A DNA stretch of 64,000 bases from a virus (lineage: Duplodnaviria; Caudoviricetes), in IMG/VR virus record IMGVR_UViG_2851188095_000001, positions 2,846-66,845 of that record. The stretch is one strand, 5' to 3'. Below, in pieces: positions 1,286 to 54,847 of this stretch; position 1 is the stretch's first letter; each line of letters starts with the position of its first letter. The translations under genes were made by a program, and so were the position numbers. The notes beneath the pieces are model-generated. The model did not search any database and was not told the origin of the DNA. It saw only the letters and a program-made list of their open reading frames with translations.

Positions 1286-2493
1286 TAGCGTTTCCCTCCG
1301 ATATATTTAATAGCGTTCAGTACTACGGTCAGCACGAACCATACCGTAGCCTGCTCGTTTAATCGCGCTGACCAGTCTGACGTAATCAGCCCGAGCGCCC
1401 GCGCCTCATCGTGCGCCTTCCGTTTCCACTCTTCGATCACAGGCGGCTCCTCCTTCGGCTCCCTCGTCGCCTTCCGTAGTCCGTACGTCTTCGCGAGTCC
1501 TTCCGTAATGGCGCGCGCCACTTTATCGCGGTAGGCGTCCGACTTGAGTAACGCAGCCTCTTCGCGATTGGTCATAAATCCGCATTCGCAAAGGATTCCC
1601 GCCATTTCCGACTTCGTTTCGCGCAGGACGTGAAAGTCGGCTTGCTTAACGCCTCGATTTCGGCGGCCTGTATGCGCGATGAGCTCCGCCTGTACGTTCG
1701 CTGCCAGTTTGCGCGATCCTTCGTCCGCCTTCGTGTACACAAACGTAGTGATCCCGTTCGCATCGTACCAGCCGCCTGGTCCCGCCGCGTCTGCGTGAAT
1801 GGAAACGTAGGCATTCGCTCCCCATCTTTTCGCACGGTCAGTACGTTCGCCTAACGGAACGTCCCGTCCGTCCTCGTGCGTGAAGAGAACGGATACGCCC
1901 TCGTATTCTGCGAGTAGATCGCGCACCCGTTTCGCGACTGCGGAGTTGAAGTGATACTCGCGCATGCTCCCGTCAGGTGTCCGTTTGCCTGGCGTATCCG
2001 GTCCGTGTCCCGCGTCGATTGCGACCTTTAACGTCATTGTCCGGCTCACCTCCGCGTCATATTCGTATAGTCGATATTGCTCGATAACCTTTGTCAACTT
2101 TTCGGTATAGGACGGATCGGTCGCGTAGCCAGCGCGCGCCACCTCGACGCATGCCGTCCGCCAGTCTACGTTGATGACGTTGCGGTAGCGCAGTTTCAGC
2201 AAGAACTCGGAGTGGTCGCGGATAGATTCGCTCCAATCGTTGTACTTGCGGAAGGCTGACCGCTTCTCAATCCGCACGCCGTCAACGTACTCATCCGATA
2301 CCTTTTCGTAGCTACCCGCAGGACCTACGCCTTTGATTCCGAATAGTGCGTTCGCATTGACCGCGAGTTCGGACGTGCCCGACCGCGATTCAACGATTGC
2401 CTGCGCGAGTGTGAGCGAAGCCGGTACGCCTGTCCGCCTGTGTTCGGCAACGGCAATCGGCGCGATTCTTGCGATGAAATCCACGTCAACCAC
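1285..2493 (-). CDS. Endolysin, GH73 glucosaminidase + Amidase_3
   Basis: LAQAIVES, NALFGIKG, GYATDP (GH73); IDAGHG, SIHAD, LCECGFMTN (amidase_3). Confidence 0.93.
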   Translation of the reverse strand: MVDVDFIARIAPIAVAEHRRTGVPASLTLAQAIVESRSGTSELAVNANALFGIKGVGPAGSYEKVSDEYVDGVRIEKRSAFRKYNDWSESIRDHSEFLLKLRYRNVINVDWRTACVEVARAGYATDPSYTEKLTKVIEQYRLYEYDAEVSRTMTLKVAIDAGHGPDTPGKRTPDGSMREYHFNSAVAKRVRDLLAEYEGVSVLFTHEDGRDVPLGERTDRAKRWGANAYVSIHADAAGPGGWYDANGITTFVYTKADEGSRKLAANVQAELIAHTGRRNRGVKQADFHVLRETKSEMAGILCECGFMTNREEAALLKSDAYRDKVARAITEGLAKTYGLRKATREPKEEPPVIEEWKRKAHDEARALGLITSDWSARLNEQATVWFVLTVVLNAIKYIGGKR

Positions 2494-2497
2494 CGCC

Positions 2498-2764
2498 TTA
2501 CTTATTTAAAATAAACGCGAGGACGGTTCCGATAAAACTCGTTCCAATCCCGATAATGAACCCCCAACTCCAGCGCGAGTTCGTCTTCATTTCCGCTATA
2601 TCGCGCGCATTCTCGTCCGCTTTTGCATCCGCTAGGCGCGCTTTCTCTAACGCAGTCTCGGCGGTCCTTTTAATTTCGGTCATTCCGTCGAGCTTCGTAT
2701 CCAAACGCACGAGCCACTCGCGTACGTCCGCTAATTGCGTGCGAATCTCTTTCATATCGTCCAT
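2498..2764 (-). CDS. XhlA-like lysis membrane protein
   Basis: Coiled coil plus C-terminal TM helix, upstream of endolysin. Confidence 0.75.
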   Translation of the reverse strand: MDDMKEIRTQLADVREWLVRLDTKLDGMTEIKRTAETALEKARLADAKADENARDIAEMKTNSRWSWGFIIGIGTSFIGTVLAFILNK

Positions 2765-2780
2765 GGGCGTGCCCCTTTCG

Positions 2781-2918
2781 TTAAGCTACGGGCTTTTCGT
2801 TCTCGGCCGCTAAATACTCGGCAACGGGAATACGGTAGGCTTCCGGTAGACTTTCGATCGTGCGGCGACCCTCCGAAATAAGAAACGCGTATGCTCGTAC
2901 CATATATGGTTTCACCAT
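2781..2918 (-). CDS. CD1375/XkdX-like small tail-associated protein (45 aa, MVKPYMVRAYAFLISEGRRTIESLPEAYRIPVAEYL...)
   Basis: Not in ORF track; YxxLIxxGRRTIESLP pattern; ATG overlaps upstream TAA. Confidence 0.75.
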   Translation of the reverse strand: MVKPYMVRAYAFLISEGRRTIESLPEAYRIPVAEYLAAENEKPVA

Positions 2919-3328
2919 TACTTTCTCCCGCCTTTCAGCGCATTAATTTCAACTCGTAATGACGCTACTTGGTCGCCGATGTACGCTATAGCATCGTACG
3001 CGTCGGTCAACATTCGTCTATGTGTCGCGACCTGTTGTTCAAGAGTCTTTCGTTGTGCTTCCTCTTCTTCCTGAATAGGTGTCAAGTCCCATGCGATCAG
3101 TTCCGTTACAGGATCGATACGATAAGAATATTTTCCGAACTTCTCGCTGTCCTGTCCGTATGGTATACGGAGTACACCAACTGTTGTGGGCAGACGCTCA
3201 GAAAGAATACGGTAGGATGCGAAATCTTCTTCGATAGAAGTCTCCCGAACCGAACCACTTGACTCTCCAGTATCTAATAATACGTTCCCGGTTGCTTTGT
3301 CGTAGTATATCTTGCGCCCAACCTCCAC
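2918..3328 (-). CDS. Tail fibre assembly/XkdW-like protein
   Basis: GRKIYYDKATGNVL N-terminus, C-terminal coiled coil, follows fibre gene. Confidence 0.6.
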   Translation of the reverse strand: MEVGRKIYYDKATGNVLLDTGESSGSVRETSIEEDFASYRILSERLPTTVGVLRIPYGQDSEKFGKYSYRIDPVTELIAWDLTPIQEEEEAQRKTLEQQVATHRRMLTDAYDAIAYIGDQVASLRVEINALKGGRK

Positions 3329-48786: not shown

Positions 48787-48820
48787 TAAAAAAGGCACAA
48801 GCTATTTCTAACTTGTGCCC
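48787..48820 (-). terminator. Terminator after propeptide gene
   Basis: GGGCACAAG...CTTGTGCC followed by T-run. Confidence 0.85.
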
Positions 48821-48828
48821 TAATAAAC

Positions 48829-48948
48829 TTACCAACCTGGTCCGCCATCGTTTAACTGACTTACTGGTTCTGTTGTCACACTCTCTGCACTTACTACTCC
48901 AGCGAACGAGAATACGAGCGATAGTATCAACATGATTTTAAATGTCAT
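48829..48948 (-). CDS. AimP-like propeptide MTFKIMLILSLVFSFAGVVSA-ESVTTEPVSQLN-DGGPGW (39 aa)
   Basis: GAGGAGG RBS, Sec signal, directly after HTH-TPR gene. Confidence 0.88.
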   Translation of the reverse strand: MTFKIMLILSLVFSFAGVVSAESVTTEPVSQLNDGGPGW

Positions 48949-48963
48949 GATTACCTCCTCAAC

Positions 48964-50256
48964 CTATGATGTTTTAGTAATAGCCAAATCAAGAAGGCTA
49001 TTGAATAGTCTATTCTGCTCATCTGTGCAAAAATCCTTGTGCAAATGAAAGTCCTTAACACAATTTAATATGTAGGCGGGAAGTCCTAAATCTGCGTATA
49101 TCTCCATGGCTTTTAAACTTAGATCAATTGCTTCTCGCTGTTGTTGTTTCTTTGCAAACAAGACTCTTGAGTACATTAACTGAAATCTAGCAAATAACCT
49201 TTTTTTGAAGGGGTTGTCCCCTACATTCCTCTCGAATTTCTGCATTTCTAAATGGTATTTCTCGATCAAATTGTCAGCCTTTTCTATCATGCCGTGCCTG
49301 ATACATACGTCTAGAATGCAATGAATATATGGAGCGACTTCTGATTGATTTCTGTCTAGCCAGCATACGAATTCTTCAATTACTTCGACTTTTCCGCTTG
49401 CGATCATTGAGTTGAAACGATTGCCCTCGCCCCAGATTTTAAATTCGCTTCTTTCTTCACCTAACAGCGCTATAACTTCCTCTGCGATCTCTATGGCTTC
49501 TGAGTATTCTTTGAGGTAGTATTTTGCACGTAGTTTGTACAGTTGTGCATTGCCATACTGAACTTTGTCTTTCTGGCATATTGCCTGACTAGCCATTTCT
49601 TCTGATAGCTGAACTACCTTCTCCCACTTCTCTAAAACGAAGTAACAAGCAACAACTTTTCGATACGCCTCTAATTTATCAGTGGTTATGTTGGAAAGGT
49701 AGCTTGATAATTGAATCGCGGAGTCATATGCATGATCCATGTTCCAATTCCTTACAATACAGTACCGCTTGTACAGGGTATTTGCCAGTCTTTCAGACAG
49801 CTTGTCAGTCTCTAATTCGATTACAATGTCGTAGAAGCGTACTGCCGCACACTCCATGTTCTTACTGACAAGTTCGTCCGCGATCCCCAGAAATACTTCT
49901 GTATTTGACTGGCCTTCTTGGACCATCTCGTTAACTAAATCATCCGCTAAATGGGAACATTCAATCTCATTACATTTAATGATAAAGTCTCTGCACTTGC
50001 TACGCAGGCGGTTTCCTACCACATCTTTACATTCTGATATATAAAAGGGATAGAAATGTCCAGACGGTAGGTCTAGCACTGATGTCAATTCGTCTAGTGT
50101 ATTTAAGGTAAAATGACGTGTTCCTTTTAATGACGCAGAGAGGTTGCCCTGCTTCACACGCCCATTGGTTTTGGTTTCTACATCTTTTTGAGTTATATTT
50201 CTCTTTTTCATCTCTTCAAAGACAATGTTTTTTAAAGTGTTAGGCATTACTGGCAC
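48964..50256 (-). CDS. AimR-like RRNPP receptor (HTH + TPR)
   Basis: N-terminal XRE HTH, helical TPR-like repeats, about 430 aa, AT-rich, adjacent propeptide. Confidence 0.82.
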   Translation of the reverse strand: MPVMPNTLKNIVFEEMKKRNITQKDVETKTNGRVKQGNLSASLKGTRHFTLNTLDELTSVLDLPSGHFYPFYISECKDVVGNRLRSKCRDFIIKCNEIECSHLADDLVNEMVQEGQSNTEVFLGIADELVSKNMECAAVRFYDIVIELETDKLSERLANTLYKRYCIVRNWNMDHAYDSAIQLSSYLSNITTDKLEAYRKVVACYFVLEKWEKVVQLSEEMASQAICQKDKVQYGNAQLYKLRAKYYLKEYSEAIEIAEEVIALLGEERSEFKIWGEGNRFNSMIASGKVEVIEEFVCWLDRNQSEVAPYIHCILDVCIRHGMIEKADNLIEKYHLEMQKFERNVGDNPFKKRLFARFQLMYSRVLFAKKQQQREAIDLSLKAMEIYADLGLPAYILNCVKDFHLHKDFCTDEQNRLFNSLLDLAITKTS

Positions 50257-50291
50257 CCCCGCGGCATCAACCTTTACTTTCGTACAGGTTC

Positions 50292-50320
50292 ATTATATTG
50301 TATATCAAATCAATTGGCAA
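50292..50320 (-). promoter_or_regulatory. SigA promoter of receptor TTGCCA-17-TATAAT
   Basis: -10 at 50292-50297, -35 at 50315-50320; spacer holds a TATATCAA half-site. Confidence 0.75.
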
Positions 50321-50674: not shown

Positions 50675-51631
50675 TTATACGGTTACAATCGGATTAAAAC
50701 GTACCCGCCGCGCCCTCTCGATATAACGTTCGACCGCGCTCACATCCGCAACCTCATTCGGGTCCTTGTATCGTATCGGATACCCCGCGACCCTCACGCG
50801 CACATATGGCGCGAGCAACTCGATCACCTTCCGCTTGAACTTTTGTCCCGCCGCGTCATGGTCCGCCATGATCACGATTTCCTCTAACGGACTCCTTCGT
50901 ATAATCTCCGCCTTCTCTTCGTTAAACGCCGACCCTCCGCTCGCAACAGCGTACTCTCCCGTCATCATTATGTACATGGCGTCAATCTCCGCCTCTACGA
51001 TGACCGCTCGTCGCACCTTATCGCGATAAATCACGTTCATACCGTAAATCATTTCGCGGATCGGTCGTCCGCCCTTCACGTACCAGAACGTTTTCTCCGC
51101 TGCCCTCCGGAACTTTACGGTACCGAGCGTACCGTCCGGCAGAAACCACGGAATCGTTATCGCACGCGATCGGTTACAGTATCCAACGCCCATCATCCGC
51201 TGTACCTCCGGACTAATTCCGCGCGATTCCAAATACGGGTGGTGCCGATCATACTCGCGCAAGATATCCACGTTGAGCGCTCGCCTATTGCGCTCAAGGC
51301 GGAGTGTGTTCGAGAGGTCTAGCGTTAAGGCGTCCGTATCGACAGCGTAGTTGCCGCCGTACTTATACCGGAGGTATTCGAGCGTCTCTTCCGTTGTCTC
51401 TTGGCGTAGAAACGAAAGTAGACTTACGATGCCGCCGCGTGCGAATTGCGAATCCGTCGCGCCACTGTCGCCCCACGAACCGGCGTTTGCCGTTGGCGTG
51501 TCCGCGAGATAGACGTAGAATGACGGATGTGTGTCGTATCGGAACGGACTGGCTGCGGTTAACTTGTCCGCGCCCCAGTCAGCATTTCTCCACGGGAACT
51601 CGGATAACTCCGCTCGAATGTCGATTTTCAC
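50675..51631 (-). CDS. DNA primase (Toprim)
   Basis: SPFRYD..PSF, YLESRGI, IVEAEIDA, DHDAAG, KDPNE. Confidence 0.9.
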   Translation of the reverse strand: MKIDIRAELSEFPWRNADWGADKLTAASPFRYDTHPSFYVYLADTPTANAGSWGDSGATDSQFARGGIVSLLSFLRQETTEETLEYLRYKYGGNYAVDTDALTLDLSNTLRLERNRRALNVDILREYDRHHPYLESRGISPEVQRMMGVGYCNRSRAITIPWFLPDGTLGTVKFRRAAEKTFWYVKGGRPIREMIYGMNVIYRDKVRRAVIVEAEIDAMYIMMTGEYAVASGGSAFNEEKAEIIRRSPLEEIVIMADHDAAGQKFKRKVIELLAPYVRVRVAGYPIRYKDPNEVADVSAVERYIERARRVRFNPIVTV

Positions 51632-51650
51632 TTGTAAGCGCTCACCTCCT

Positions 51651-51684
51651 AAAATAATAGCCCACCTCGAATATGAGATGGACC
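51651..51684 (-). terminator. Riboswitch-controlled intrinsic terminator before primase RBS
   Basis: GGTCCATCTC-ATATTC-GAGGTGGGCT followed by ATTATTTT. Confidence 0.75.
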
Positions 51685-51701
51685 ATAACGTACCCTTCTC
51701 T

Positions 51702-51796
51702 CATCTTCGGTAGCTGGCTGGCATGTCCAAGAATCGGAGTTAGCCCCTATAGTTTTGCGTCGCCAGATTTCTCCGGGTTTGCTATTATCGGATAAG
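51702..51796 (-). ncRNA. GEMM-I (c-di-GMP-I family) riboswitch aptamer, A20 variant
   Basis: CG-ATAATA-GCAAACCCGGA-GAAA-TCTGGCGACGC-AAAACTATAGGGG-CTAA...ATG-CCAGCCAGCTACCG matches GEMM-I architecture. Confidence 0.87.
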
Positions 51797-51898
51797 TTTT
51801 AACTTTTAGTACATTATATTCCACCGCTGTTACTAATGTATAGTGAGTTTTTTCTTGACAAAGTATTTTAGACCTTAATGCTCATTGACGGTAGTTCG

Positions 51899-53242
51899 TT
51901 AGGGATTGAACCGTTGGGCTGCAACTGGTCCGGTCTCCATCTCTCGTACTATACCGTAGTTAGGTAGATATATTACCTCAACCGTAGTCCCTTCGCCACC
52001 GTTCCGCCCCTTCCCGATCTCGATTACGCCGAGCCCGTCGTTCGCGACCGTATCGATCCCGAGCACGTTCGTAGCGTCTTCGAGTACCGCTTTCGTCTTC
52101 TTGATCTCTACGCGTTGGGGTGGACGGAGTTCACGGTGTCCGTCGTCACCTTTCTCGTCCTTCACTTCGTCAGCCTGCGTGATTACGTGAAGGACTACAC
52201 CGTACTTTCCTGCCAGCCTCCGCAACTTCTTCGATGTCTCCGCCGCATCGCCGCCCGAGGTCTTACTCGTGTTAACCTCGTAGTCCATGTAGTAGAACGG
52301 ATCGATTACGACAACATCCGAATTTGTAACGAGTATGTCCGCCTCTAAATCGCGGACCCTGCGCGAGTCGAAGTCCTGGTCATCTACGGAGCGAATAACG
52401 ATGTTCCCCGTCATCTCTTCGGAAACTCGCGTTAGGAACGCAATGAACGCCGCTTCGAAATCTTCCGCAAGCTGTCCGCGTAATAACGCCATGTTATCGA
52501 ATCCGGCCTGTTGCACTATTCCGTTTATCTCCGCATCGCAGACACCTAATCGTGCGGATATCGACGTATAGGCACGCGCCATCCATTCGTATCGCGACAT
52601 CTCCATTACCCACACGAGAACACTAGCTCCTTGGAACGCAGCCTCGATCGCTTCCTCCATCGTCATGACCGATTTTCCTCGCCCAGGTCGCGCATACCAC
52701 GTATACATGTTTCCAGAGAGATAACCGCCAATCTCGCGATTAATGGTCGGAAATTTACTCCGCCATATCTTGAACGAGCGTCCCTCCTTACGCTTATGAT
52801 ACTCGTCCAGAAACGCGGCAGTATCCCGTTTAATGTCCGTGCCTACCTTCGTCCGGACCGTTGTCCCCGCCGCAATCCCATCGAGCTTGCCGCGCACCCA
52901 CTCCGCAAACTCCTCCGGTTTCATCGCGGAGAAATTCGCGCCGAACTCCGGACTCGTAAAGAACGCGTGTTGGCGGAACTTGGCGGAGCCCTCCTTCACC
53001 TTGCGCGCCAGGAATTCGAACGAGTCCGCCACCTCCGGCATGTACGTAAAGCCTGCGACCTCGGCCGCGACCGTACGATAATCCGGAACCCGTCCGTTCG
53101 CTTCCGCATACTCGCGGATAAACCGGAGCGCCCTCCGTTCGGCTTCCGTACCCATGTGCGATTCGTCGATGCTGTAGCGCGTGAGGGCGGCCGGGTCGTT
53201 TGCGTCGATTACCTTGCTTAATAGCGATTCTCCGTATGCCAT
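51899..53242 (-). CDS. dnaB: Replicative DNA helicase (DnaB family)
   Basis: ARPGRGKS, MEMS, VVIDP, ITQA, KGRNG. Confidence 0.9.
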   Translation of the reverse strand: MAYGESLLSKVIDANDPAALTRYSIDESHMGTEAERRALRFIREYAEANGRVPDYRTVAAEVAGFTYMPEVADSFEFLARKVKEGSAKFRQHAFFTSPEFGANFSAMKPEEFAEWVRGKLDGIAAGTTVRTKVGTDIKRDTAAFLDEYHKRKEGRSFKIWRSKFPTINREIGGYLSGNMYTWYARPGRGKSVMTMEEAIEAAFQGASVLVWVMEMSRYEWMARAYTSISARLGVCDAEINGIVQQAGFDNMALLRGQLAEDFEAAFIAFLTRVSEEMTGNIVIRSVDDQDFDSRRVRDLEADILVTNSDVVVIDPFYYMDYEVNTSKTSGGDAAETSKKLRRLAGKYGVVLHVITQADEVKDEKGDDGHRELRPPQRVEIKKTKAVLEDATNVLGIDTVANDGLGVIEIGKGRNGGEGTTVEVIYLPNYGIVREMETGPVAAQRFNP

Positions 53243-53767: not shown

Positions 53768-54532
53768 CTATTTCCGCATCCCTCGTTTACTCTCGCCCAC
53801 AAACGGAACCACCGCGCATTGATCCCGTACACGATCCGCCAGCCTCTTATCGAACACGACCGCGAGCTCATCGATTGTCACGTTCGATGTATAAACGGTC
53901 GGCATTCGGTTCGTTACGCGATGATTAATTACCGCATGCAGATCGCCACGGAACGCCTCGCTCGCGTCACGTACGCCGATATCGTCCATTACAACGAATG
54001 GCGCGTCCCTTGCGTATTCCATCGCGCGGTAGTACGCGGCTGACGCTGGCTCTGCGATATGGTCCGGAACGCGCGGTCGATTGAATGCGTTAAATTGCGT
54101 CTGCCATTCGTTCACGTCGAGGAAGTACGCCGGTCGGTTCAGCGGTCGCCTATTCCGTTGAATCGATCCGATATAGTGGCGGACGAGATACGTATTCGCG
54201 ATTGCGGCGGCGGTCGTTGTCTTTCCGGTGCCAGTCGCGAGTGAGTACAGGTACAGCGATTTGATGCGGTCGGCTTCTGGTTCGAATTGGCGTTCGAATG
54301 TTTCGCAATAGCGTTCCACAATCGCGTATGCCTTCGCTTGGTCTGCGCGAGCTACCGAGTTCGCGGCTGTTACTTGGCGATAATCGATCGGGATGCTCGC
54401 GGCGCTCACGCGTCCACCCGTTCCGCTGGCTCCGTGGAGAGCGATGAAGTGCGGGCAGAGGCGGGTGCATGCGGTCGGGTCCGAGGACGTGCGACAGGGT
54501 TCGCGTAGGATGCAGGATGGTGCGTTGGTCAT
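53768..54532 (-). CDS. DnaC/IstB-like helicase loader ATPase
   Basis: TGTGKT, VMDDIG, YTSN, RLADRV, GESKR. Confidence 0.9.
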   Translation of the reverse strand: MTNAPSCILREPCRTSSDPTACTRLCPHFIALHGASGTGGRVSAASIPIDYRQVTAANSVARADQAKAYAIVERYCETFERQFEPEADRIKSLYLYSLATGTGKTTTAAAIANTYLVRHYIGSIQRNRRPLNRPAYFLDVNEWQTQFNAFNRPRVPDHIAEPASAAYYRAMEYARDAPFVVMDDIGVRDASEAFRGDLHAVINHRVTNRMPTVYTSNVTIDELAVVFDKRLADRVRDQCAVVPFVGESKRGMRK

Positions 54533-54847
54533 GCGGTCACCTCCGCTTGGGTTCAGTATAAAGCCAGTTGTTAAGAATCCGCGTTTTAGAAATCCTAACA
54601 ACTTTATATTTTTTGAATTCTACTCCTTAACAAACGTAATGTTGTGTTAATCCACCGATTTGTTAGCCTCTACTATCGATTCGAAATGTCTACTGTAAAA
54701 GCTTTCGACTACTAAAGCCAGTGCCGAATCCCTTGTCTCTTCACTTTTGAATGCTTTAGAGATGTATACCCTGATTTCTTCTAATCTTATTTCAGCGAGC
54801 TTGAGGCTTATGTCGTCCATCACAGTCCCCCGTTTAATTCTGTTGTG

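Follow-up and report, generated by a model that had tools for sequence, protein, structure and literature searches.

A candidate cyclic di-GMP riboswitch upstream of the DNA primase gene of a Caudoviricetes provirus

Phage riboswitches are considered rare, and McCown et al. 2017 give only two class-I cyclic di-GMP (c-di-GMP-I) riboswitches, both from Clostridioides difficile prophages, and two glutamine riboswitches of cyanophages, as far as the account of phages in PMC5473149 goes. The former, Cdi1_4 and Cdi1_5, are located in the prophages phiCD630-1 and phiCD630-2 (PMC7699646); PMC5473149 credits Sudarsan et al. 2008 with their first mention. Northern blots of both showed a terminated transcript of about 140 nucleotides (nt) and c-di-GMP-sensitive read-through, and premature termination at high c-di-GMP is reported for most class-I c-di-GMP riboswitches of C. 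difficile, the two prophage elements included (PMC7699646). Other phage riboswitches are the glutamine riboswitches of cyanophages and of the OM43 phage Melnitz (PMC5473149, PMC9004378). Here we describe a c-di-GMP-I (GEMM-I) aptamer located between a DnaB-like helicase gene and a DNA primase gene in the IMG/VR provirus IMGVR_UViG_2851188095_000001 (Caudoviricetes). The provirus record comprises 66,845 bases and is rated complete; the window analysed is a stretch of 64,000 of these bases, in which all genes lie on the minus strand. Judging from the modelled alternative folds, the element is probably a working c-di-GMP-responsive transcriptional OFF switch on the phage primase gene, with ligand binding and termination both predicted.

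The element resembles Cdi1_4 and Cdi1_5 in being a class-I c-di-GMP aptamer of a temperate Firmicute phage with OFF control by premature termination, which is predicted for the present phage. The C. difficile elements precede the antitoxin RNA of a type I toxin-antitoxin module, whereas the present one precedes a replication gene. Their copies examined in IMG/VR have G at position 20, which determines ligand specificity, whereas the present phage has A; and they are conserved in many prophage copies, whereas the present element is a singleton. With the phage glutamine riboswitches it shares the reuse of a host-type metabolite or signal sensor in a phage genome, but those belong to another class and have other targets (psbA region, tmRNA), none of them a replisome gene. 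No paper on a riboswitch before a phage replication gene was found in the open-access full-text literature, where phage riboswitches as such led only to the glutamine riboswitch of phage Melnitz. A preliminary description of this DNA, made from the sequence alone, had also known of none on a core phage replication gene, in agreement with that literature and with McCown et al. 2017 as far as the text of PMC5473149 covers phages. As a riboswitch the element is ordinary and belongs to a well-known class; it is the place that is unusual, and its position before a phage primase is, as far as we found in the open-access literature, undescribed.

The whole window was searched by cmscan against all 4227 Rfam families at their gathering thresholds. 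Only two matches were obtained, a group I intron and RF01051, the c-di-GMP-I family. The RF01051 match scored 65.8 bits (gathering score 35; E 1.2e-10) and covered model positions 1-87 of 87, so a full GEMM-I aptamer on the minus strand of the gap, as proposed in the preliminary description, was recovered by an Rfam covariance-model search, the kind of check suggested there. With this E-value the aptamer is more than a chance resemblance. A covariance-model search of the genome itself recovered the same place, and our own covariance model (R1) scored the aptamer at 79.7 bits. All hallmarks of RF01051 were there in the alignment, namely GCAAA, P2 capped by GAAA, GACGCAAA, P3 with CUAA/AUG, and CCGAA. 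The Rfam score is near that of chromosomal homologues from gamma-glutamyltranspeptidase leaders (66.5-75 bits). For comparison, 43 aptamers were aligned (alignment A2): the phage copy, 24 from other viral or phage records (contig MT838705.1 and 23 IMG/VR loci) and 18 from Brevibacillaceae chromosomes. Across them 89.3% of cells were paired, both sides changed in 12 of the 17 pairs, and the observed level of covariation was reached by none of 500 shuffles. The invariant columns of the family are all kept in the phage copy. The aptamer is a genuine member of the c-di-GMP-I family by every feature that can be judged from sequence save the consensus G20, in whose place it has the known A20 variant.

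The gap between the helicase and primase genes is 267 nt long and holds the aptamer (Table 1). Its upstream part (51800-51899) has a GC content of 32%, compared with about 52% overall, and its flanks match phrog_19/PF03796 and phrog_47/PF13155, as expected from the earlier reading of an AT-rich gap between helicase and primase. The TATAAT pointed out there on the minus strand was found at 51818-51813, within the promoter-like site; promoter-like sites in this region are not enriched over shuffles. P1 can be formed by 51796-51789 and 51709-51700 with eight pairs and an AA bulge, in the register of the conserved C-G/G-C pairs beside the binding pocket. A P1 duplex of -6.0 kcal/mol was reached by 61 of 2000 shuffles.

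The 3′ end of the aptamer can also pair with the terminator. Between CGAAGAUGAGA (51709-51699) and UCUCAUAUUCG (51678-51668), 10 of the 11 facing bases can pair and one is a G.A mismatch, which reproduces the pairing of the preliminary description. In that register alone the antiterminator is much weaker than the terminator (-9.4 vs -17.1 kcal/mol). In an extended register the duplex of tail and terminator has -15.4 kcal/mol, a value that 21 of 2000 shuffles and 109 of 3000 random genomic 21-mers also attained, and it covers the distal part of the hairpin 5′ strand, the loop and part of the 3′ strand (51678-51662). The terminator hairpin itself has an energy of -16.6 to -17.1 kcal/mol, the fold of 51640-51715 has a z of -2.53, and the stem is among the three longest (10-13 bp) of the coding-strand terminator-like sites in 20 kb. 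An intrinsic terminator just before the ribosome-binding site of the primase had been placed at 51651-51684; in our scan it consists of the hairpin 51686-51657 and the U-tail. From the U-tract to the GTG start of the primase (start codon 51631) there are only about 20 nt, so a promoter downstream of the terminator, named in the preliminary description as speaking against its reading, does not fit there. Because the U-tail runs straight into the Shine-Dalgarno sequence, every primase-bound transcript must pass the switch, whether it comes from the helicase promoter or from the promoter-like site of the gap itself. Beyond the primase, the next strong terminator-like site is only at 48821-48792, and read-through may therefore reach the next genes.

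For a forced-fold comparison, the terminator or the antiterminator was imposed on a 157-nt leader. The ensemble energies were -42.76 kcal/mol with the terminator and -42.29 and -42.15 kcal/mol with two registers of the antiterminator. As these values are nearly equal (within 0.6 kcal/mol), the RNA appears to be poised, or bistable, without ligand. It is only with the extended register and the comparison of full ensembles that the two states become comparable. Minimum free energy (MFE) folds of the growing transcript contained the antiterminator at 3′ ends 51668, 51664 and 51660, and the terminator only from 51657. When secondary structure alone is counted, the combination of native aptamer, P1 and terminator lies about 8-9 kcal/mol higher; ligand binding and tertiary contacts would have to make up this difference, which by our estimate is plausible for a nanomolar ligand. 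The MFE of the whole leader was rejected as a structural model (z -1.08, untrusted long-range pairs), and the explicit alternative helices were used instead. Both parts of a transcriptional OFF platform were found in silico: a downstream terminator, and an alternative helix in which the P1 3′ strand takes part and which excludes that terminator. P1, the antiterminator and the terminator exclude one another as the preliminary description had it for a GEMM-I OFF switch before the primase. All elements listed in that description were located at its coordinates or a few bases away, and its main reading is supported in silico. In addition, the 5′ junction GAUAAUAGC (51789-51781), in which the A at the G20 position lies, could form 9 pairs (-9.9 kcal/mol) with GCUAUUAUU (51662-51654), the base of the terminator 3′ strand with the start of the U-tail. 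As 82 of 3000 shuffles and 228 of 3000 genomic 15-mers did equally well, this pairing is only suggestive of a second antiterminating contact.

In the proposed mechanism, RNA polymerase arriving from the helicase gene or starting at the promoter-like site (51842-51813) would transcribe the aptamer. At low host c-di-GMP, the tail 51713-51697 would pair with 51678-51662, the terminator would be blocked and the primase transcribed, with read-through possibly continuing past the primase to the terminator at 48821-48792. At high c-di-GMP, the bound ligand would hold the tail in P1 and the binding pocket, the hairpin 51686-51657 with its U-tail would form, and transcription would stop about 20 nt before the primase start. 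An OFF polarity is expected because the shared strand, once held in P1 by the ligand, would leave the terminator free to form. The biological logic would be that phage DNA replication is held back in sessile host cells with high c-di-GMP.

Table 1. Features of the helicase-primase region (window coordinates)
Feature	Position	Strand	Basis and remarks
DnaC-like helicase loader	53768-54601	(-)	first in transcription order around the element
DnaB-like replicative helicase	51899..53242	(-)	open reading frame (ORF) of 447 aa; PF03796 DnaB_C E 1.3e-9; phrog_19 E 1.7e-43; upstream of the predicted riboswitch
Promoter-like site TATACA-18-TATAAT	51813..51842	(-)	consensus scan, 10/12 matches; candidate; transcription from it could begin about 7 nt ahead of the P1 5′ strand
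P1 5′ strand (CUUAUCCG)	51789..51796	(-)	pairs with P1 3′ strand, -6.0 kcal/mol
c-di-GMP-I (GEMM-I) aptamer	51706..51793	(-)	RF01051; P2 GAAA tetraloop, GACGCAAA junction, P3 CUAA/AUG receptor-like internal loop
A at consensus-G position	51783	(-)	Rfam alignment, model position 11; ligand-specificity position
Switching strand	51697..51713	(-)	P1 3′ strand (51700-51709) and neighbours; can pair with P1 5′ strand or terminator 51662-51678
Terminator hairpin	51657..51686	(-)	terminator scan; 12 bp including 3 G-U, loop of 6 (AUAUUC)
Terminator U-rich tail (UAUUUU)	51651..51656	(-)	meets scan criterion of 5 T in 8
Shine-Dalgarno sequence of primase (AGGAGGUGA)	51642..51650	(-)	read from sequence; directly after the U-tail
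DNA primase (Toprim), GTG start	50675..51631	(-)	ORF of 318 aa; PF13155 E 1.5e-13; phrog_47 E 1.3e-37

The search for homologues of the primase returned 334 sequences. The best named one belongs to Brevibacillus brevis (77%), and since the nearest named relatives come from Brevibacillus and Paenibacillus prophages, the host is most likely Brevibacillus or its close kin. By blastn of the whole gap against 61 Brevibacillaceae genomes, only the aptamer part was matched, in 30 of them and with 72-86% identity; the 20 best matches had 81-86% identity over 78-87 nt. The ORF downstream of one host aptamer (L271:1682-3079) encodes a gamma-glutamyltranspeptidase. Read by eye, the host copies lie in a conserved leader with a terminator of their own and a similar OFF logic. 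Their 5′ junction (...CGAUAAUGGCAAAC...) is very similar to that of the phage (...CGAUAAUAGCAAAC...) save for the A at position 20. All 14 host loci inspected among the 20 best have G at this position, and the A of the phage is therefore derived. By eye, the phage element shares with the Brevibacillus gamma-glutamyltranspeptidase-leader riboswitch the P2 sequence, a 5′ junction of the AUCGAUAAU type in some copies and the OFF logic; the host riboswitch differs in its G20, in the sequence of the platform and in its metabolic or secreted-enzyme target. We know of no name given to this host riboswitch in print. Most likely, the phage captured the aptamer from a gamma-glutamyltranspeptidase-type leader in a Brevibacillus chromosome, and then, or in the same event, the aptamer was combined with a new expression platform. 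The c-di-GMP-I riboswitch with terminator in the gamma-glutamyltranspeptidase leader is in itself conserved at the DNA level in 30 of the 61 Brevibacillaceae genomes.

We take model position 11 of the Rfam alignment to be G20 in Vc2 numbering; the Vc2 numbering of the ligand contacts G20, A47 and C92 and their mapping to the Rfam columns are likewise assumed. This mapping was compared only with the description in PMC6140456. Read from the Rfam alignment, the G20 equivalent is A (51783) and the C92 equivalent is kept in the CC of the conserved CCGAA (51710-51709), as had been stated before; the A47 equivalent, the first A after GACGC, is present as well. Position 20 in alignment A2 is A in 6, C in 1 and G in 36 aptamers, and among 60 further Brevibacillaceae aptamers two have A (five regex artefacts or misses were read by eye). 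A20 is thus a minority yet normal variant. The chromosome of Brevibacillus sp. SYP-B805 carries an aptamer with C at the G20 position (GAUAAUCGCAAAC; L262:1492-1587, minus strand), which is otherwise a canonical c-di-GMP-I aptamer of 84.6 bits.

The first base of the ligand is recognised at position 20 (PMC6140456). The G20A mutant of Vc2 binds c-di-GMP at 53 nM and cyclic GMP-AMP (cGAMP) at 120 nM, the wild type being picomolar for c-di-GMP, and Cbe 1-2 of Clostridium beijerinckii, a natural A20 aptamer of a Firmicute, binds both c-di-GMP and 3′,3′-cGAMP (PMC6140456). As far as PMC6140456 reports them, the A20 aptamers outside Geobacter are bispecific and not cGAMP-selective. Like Vc2 G20A and Cbe 1-2, the phage aptamer has adenine at the position that reads the first base and keeps the cytosine that pairs with the second guanine (PMC6140456); those two were characterised as isolated aptamers. 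By analogy, the phage aptamer should bind both ligands, c-di-GMP less tightly than its host cousins: the change of G20 to A has probably shifted the affinity for c-di-GMP from picomolar to nanomolar and added binding of cGAMP. In Geobacter, riboswitches of the GEMM-Ib type are cGAMP ON switches on cytochrome and pilus genes, and A20G turns the aptamer Gmet_0970 from cGAMP to c-di-GMP (PMC6456294). A at position 20 (51783) is common to the 3′,3′-cGAMP-selective GEMM-Ib and the phage aptamer; we do not file the latter in GEMM-Ib.

An A20 pattern scan of viral contigs yielded 22 stretches, 20 of them new, and one of the new ones (L314) was a true aptamer by R1; the remaining two (L175 and L218) were already known. 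The A20 aptamers with the junction GAUAAUAGCAAAC (MT838705.1, L175, L218, L219, L314 and L387) precede ordinary secreted proteins, a response regulator or large surface genes. RF01051 is present in 54 of the 61 Brevibacillaceae genomes, and the likely host therefore uses c-di-GMP as a signal. The phage encodes no GGDEF, EAL or SMODS domains, so any ligand would come from the host. The physiological ligand is most likely host c-di-GMP.

Several observations weigh against an OFF switch that works in the phage, and the main weakness is that function is argued by design alone. In the phage aptamer two of the modelled pairs are non-canonical: P3 contains an A.C mismatch, and at its base P2 has C.C, a position that is unpaired in 16 of the 43 family members. 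The statistics of complementarity are modest (p about 0.01-0.04), and shuffled sequences fold as stably as the whole leader (z -1.08). The terminator stem has 3 G-U pairs among its 12, and its U run (UAUUUUA) is so short that the efficiency of termination is uncertain. At equilibrium the terminator is as stable as the antiterminator or slightly more stable, which makes read-through without ligand dependent on kinetics. By blastn, neither the expression platform nor the riboswitch-primase junction occurs in any of the 61 Brevibacillaceae genomes. The element was also absent from relatives of the phage. Loci of primase relatives were collected by profile scans (the best 80 of 136 viral relatives and 57 genomic ones, n=137), and R1 was run over 2.5 kb on each side of the gene. 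The aptamer was found in none of the 137 loci by R1, in none of the 19 closest primase loci by Rfam, and in none of 17 loci of helicase relatives by R1, where one noise match (E 0.47) was obtained. The survey of helicase-primase gaps in related phages, which the preliminary description had proposed, thus gave no second case. As the element is a singleton, selection on the arrangement cannot be shown. The riboswitch-primase arrangement may be recent.

Other searches for relatives gave little. A single-protein scan of viral contigs with the primase found no relative, and a metagenome scan with it found one irrelevant 35% fragment only. Blastn against the phage collection returned short coding matches and the aptamer of MT838705.1, which stands in an unrelated context before a transglutaminase-like secreted protein. 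The helicase-primase gap varies among relatives from an overlap to more than 1 kb, with a median of about 55 nt and a quarter above 226 nt. In the closest primase relative (L003, 77%) the two genes are only about 60 nt apart, and the closest helicase relative (L290, 83%) has an ORF of 140 aa in the slot (L290:3345-3813). The helicase-primase position appears to be a variable cargo slot in this phage group, and the riboswitch a lineage-specific insertion.

Such a slot could also have taken up the element by illegitimate recombination, as a passenger that senses nothing, with a hairpin that attenuates helicase-primase transcription or ends a short leader independently of ligand. This would agree with the singleton status of the element (0/137 primase-relative and 0/17 helicase-relative loci), with the variability of the slot (median of about 55 nt, a quarter above 226 nt, the 140-aa ORF of L290), with a specificity base that differs from that of the host homologues and with a terminator thermodynamically at least equal to the antiterminator. 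However, the aptamer scores like intact chromosomal homologues and keeps all invariant columns, and a platform that is not of host type still provides a P1 strand and an antiterminator in register, which is unlikely by accident (21/2000 and 61/2000 shuffles). We therefore regard a passenger or constitutive attenuator as unlikely, though worth serious consideration. A different ligand, 3′,3′-cGAMP, made by the cyclic-oligonucleotide-based anti-phage signalling system (CBASS) of the host or by a Hypr GGDEF, would mean that the primase is stopped on an alarm nucleotide. It is suggested by the A at the G20 position, which is derived since close host homologues have G, and by the literature: position 20 is the main specificity determinant, as seen in the A20G switch of Gmet_0970 (PMC6456294), and Vc2 G20A and Cbe 1-2 bind both ligands (PMC6140456). 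On the other side, the A20 aptamers outside Geobacter are bispecific as described in PMC6140456, those with the GAUAAUAGCAAAC junction precede ordinary secreted, response-regulator and large surface genes, and a phage would have no evident benefit from arresting itself on a CBASS signal. Moreover, a SMODS-type cyclase domain occurs in only 4 of the 61 genomes of the host family and in none of the phage genes, Hypr GGDEFs not having been searched for. We consider cGAMP as the physiological ligand very improbable. Of the earlier suggestion of a cGAMP or CBASS link, the part that stands is an A20 like that of the bispecific aptamers (PMC6140456), while the lack of a phage cyclase and the rarity of SMODS (4/61 host-family genomes) speak against the rest; a role of cGAMP or CBASS for this element is pure speculation.

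The polarity and the level of control were considered in the same way. Class-I c-di-GMP riboswitches occur in both polarities, and the Shine-Dalgarno sequence directly adjoins the U-tail, so the ligand might raise primase expression, or the access of ribosomes might be controlled. However, the terminator does not overlap the aptamer, and the only shared strand is the P1 3′ strand, whose pairing with the terminator gives OFF; the Shine-Dalgarno sequence is unpaired in both the terminator and the antiterminator fold of a short construct. An ON switch or a translational switch is extremely improbable on these grounds. Beyond a c-di-GMP-responsive OFF switch as such, one could imagine a host riboswitch deliberately carried by the phage and detuned to two ligands by the change of G20 to A, as one input of a multi-signal decision on lysis-lysogeny or replication. 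Either high c-di-GMP or a CBASS burst of cGAMP would then stop the primase and park the genome, the other inputs being an arbitrium-like module and an SOS-controlled helicase promoter. We hold this to be improbable. In a bolder variant, the promoter-aptamer-terminator unit 51842-51650 would also yield large amounts of an RNA of about 150 nt, which would sequester cyclic dinucleotides as an RNA counterpart of the protein sponges directed against cyclic-nucleotide defence.

Directly downstream of the primase lies a segment of low GC content (window 48792-50320, minus strand; 40% vs about 52%). It has a strong promoter-like site (TTGCCA-17-TATAAT at 50320..50292), a gene for a 430-aa protein with a weak N-terminal helix-turn-helix match, and then a small exported pro-peptide ending in DGGPGW, followed by a 13-bp terminator (48821-48792). 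In a search of PDB sequences the 430-aa protein gave only weak matches resembling tetratricopeptide repeats (E 0.045 and above). The segment looks like a peptide-signalling module of the arbitrium/RRNPP type, and read-through from the riboswitch could extend into it. The group I intron of the window (RF00028, 35385-36286, minus strand) scored 76.5 bits (gathering score 50); one of its peripheral loops is enlarged by several hundred inserted bases, enough to hold a homing endonuclease. The sequencing runs listed for the locus included no RNA run and one DNA run, with a 0.06 share of words.

Phage-borne aptamers of this family were also sought more widely. A pattern scan of IMG/VR gave at least 119 stretches, of which 80 loci (L140-L219) were examined, as a sample and not a census. 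In these loci R1 gave 70 matches at E up to 0.001 and 63 at 36 bits or more, and many were of the C. difficile prophage type. After near-identical copies of that type and matches below 36 bits had been dropped, 42 of the 70 matches were kept, and 28 of these had an ORF of at least 70 aa starting within 450 nt. Ten of the 28 ORFs were scanned against PHROGs. Among the loci listed, aptamers precede a dUTPase (L159), an XRE-type regulator (L144), an HNH endonuclease (L141), a head maturation protease (L214), CheY-like receivers (L153, L186, L191 and L218) and many secreted proteins. A tblastn search of 98 window ORFs against 81 loci revealed no primase or helicase, and among the matches listed no aptamer precedes either. 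The borders of IMG/VR proviruses can include host DNA, and some genes downstream of these aptamers may be non-phage. A very similar A20 aptamer (2179-2266, 66.9 bits) occurs in MT838705.1, a contig from a faecal sample labelled 'unverified bacteriophage'. Its 3′ end overlaps the Shine-Dalgarno sequence of the secreted transglutaminase-like protein (2280-3116), which suggests a translational design and not a terminator; owing to a tRNA gene nearby, the contig may be bacterial.

These data suggest that c-di-GMP-I aptamers borne by phages and proviruses are far commoner than the literature says, and the use of riboswitches by phages may be a broader theme than the present phage alone. They also point to a route by which phages could acquire sensors, in which the aptamer of a host leader is copied and joined to a new terminator. 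If the proposed OFF switch is real, a temperate phage would read the second messenger of its host for sessile or motile life directly, without a protein sensor, and this host signal would decide whether the primase needed for replication is made. The timing of phage replication by signals of host lifestyle would then become a simple question for reporter and plaque experiments.

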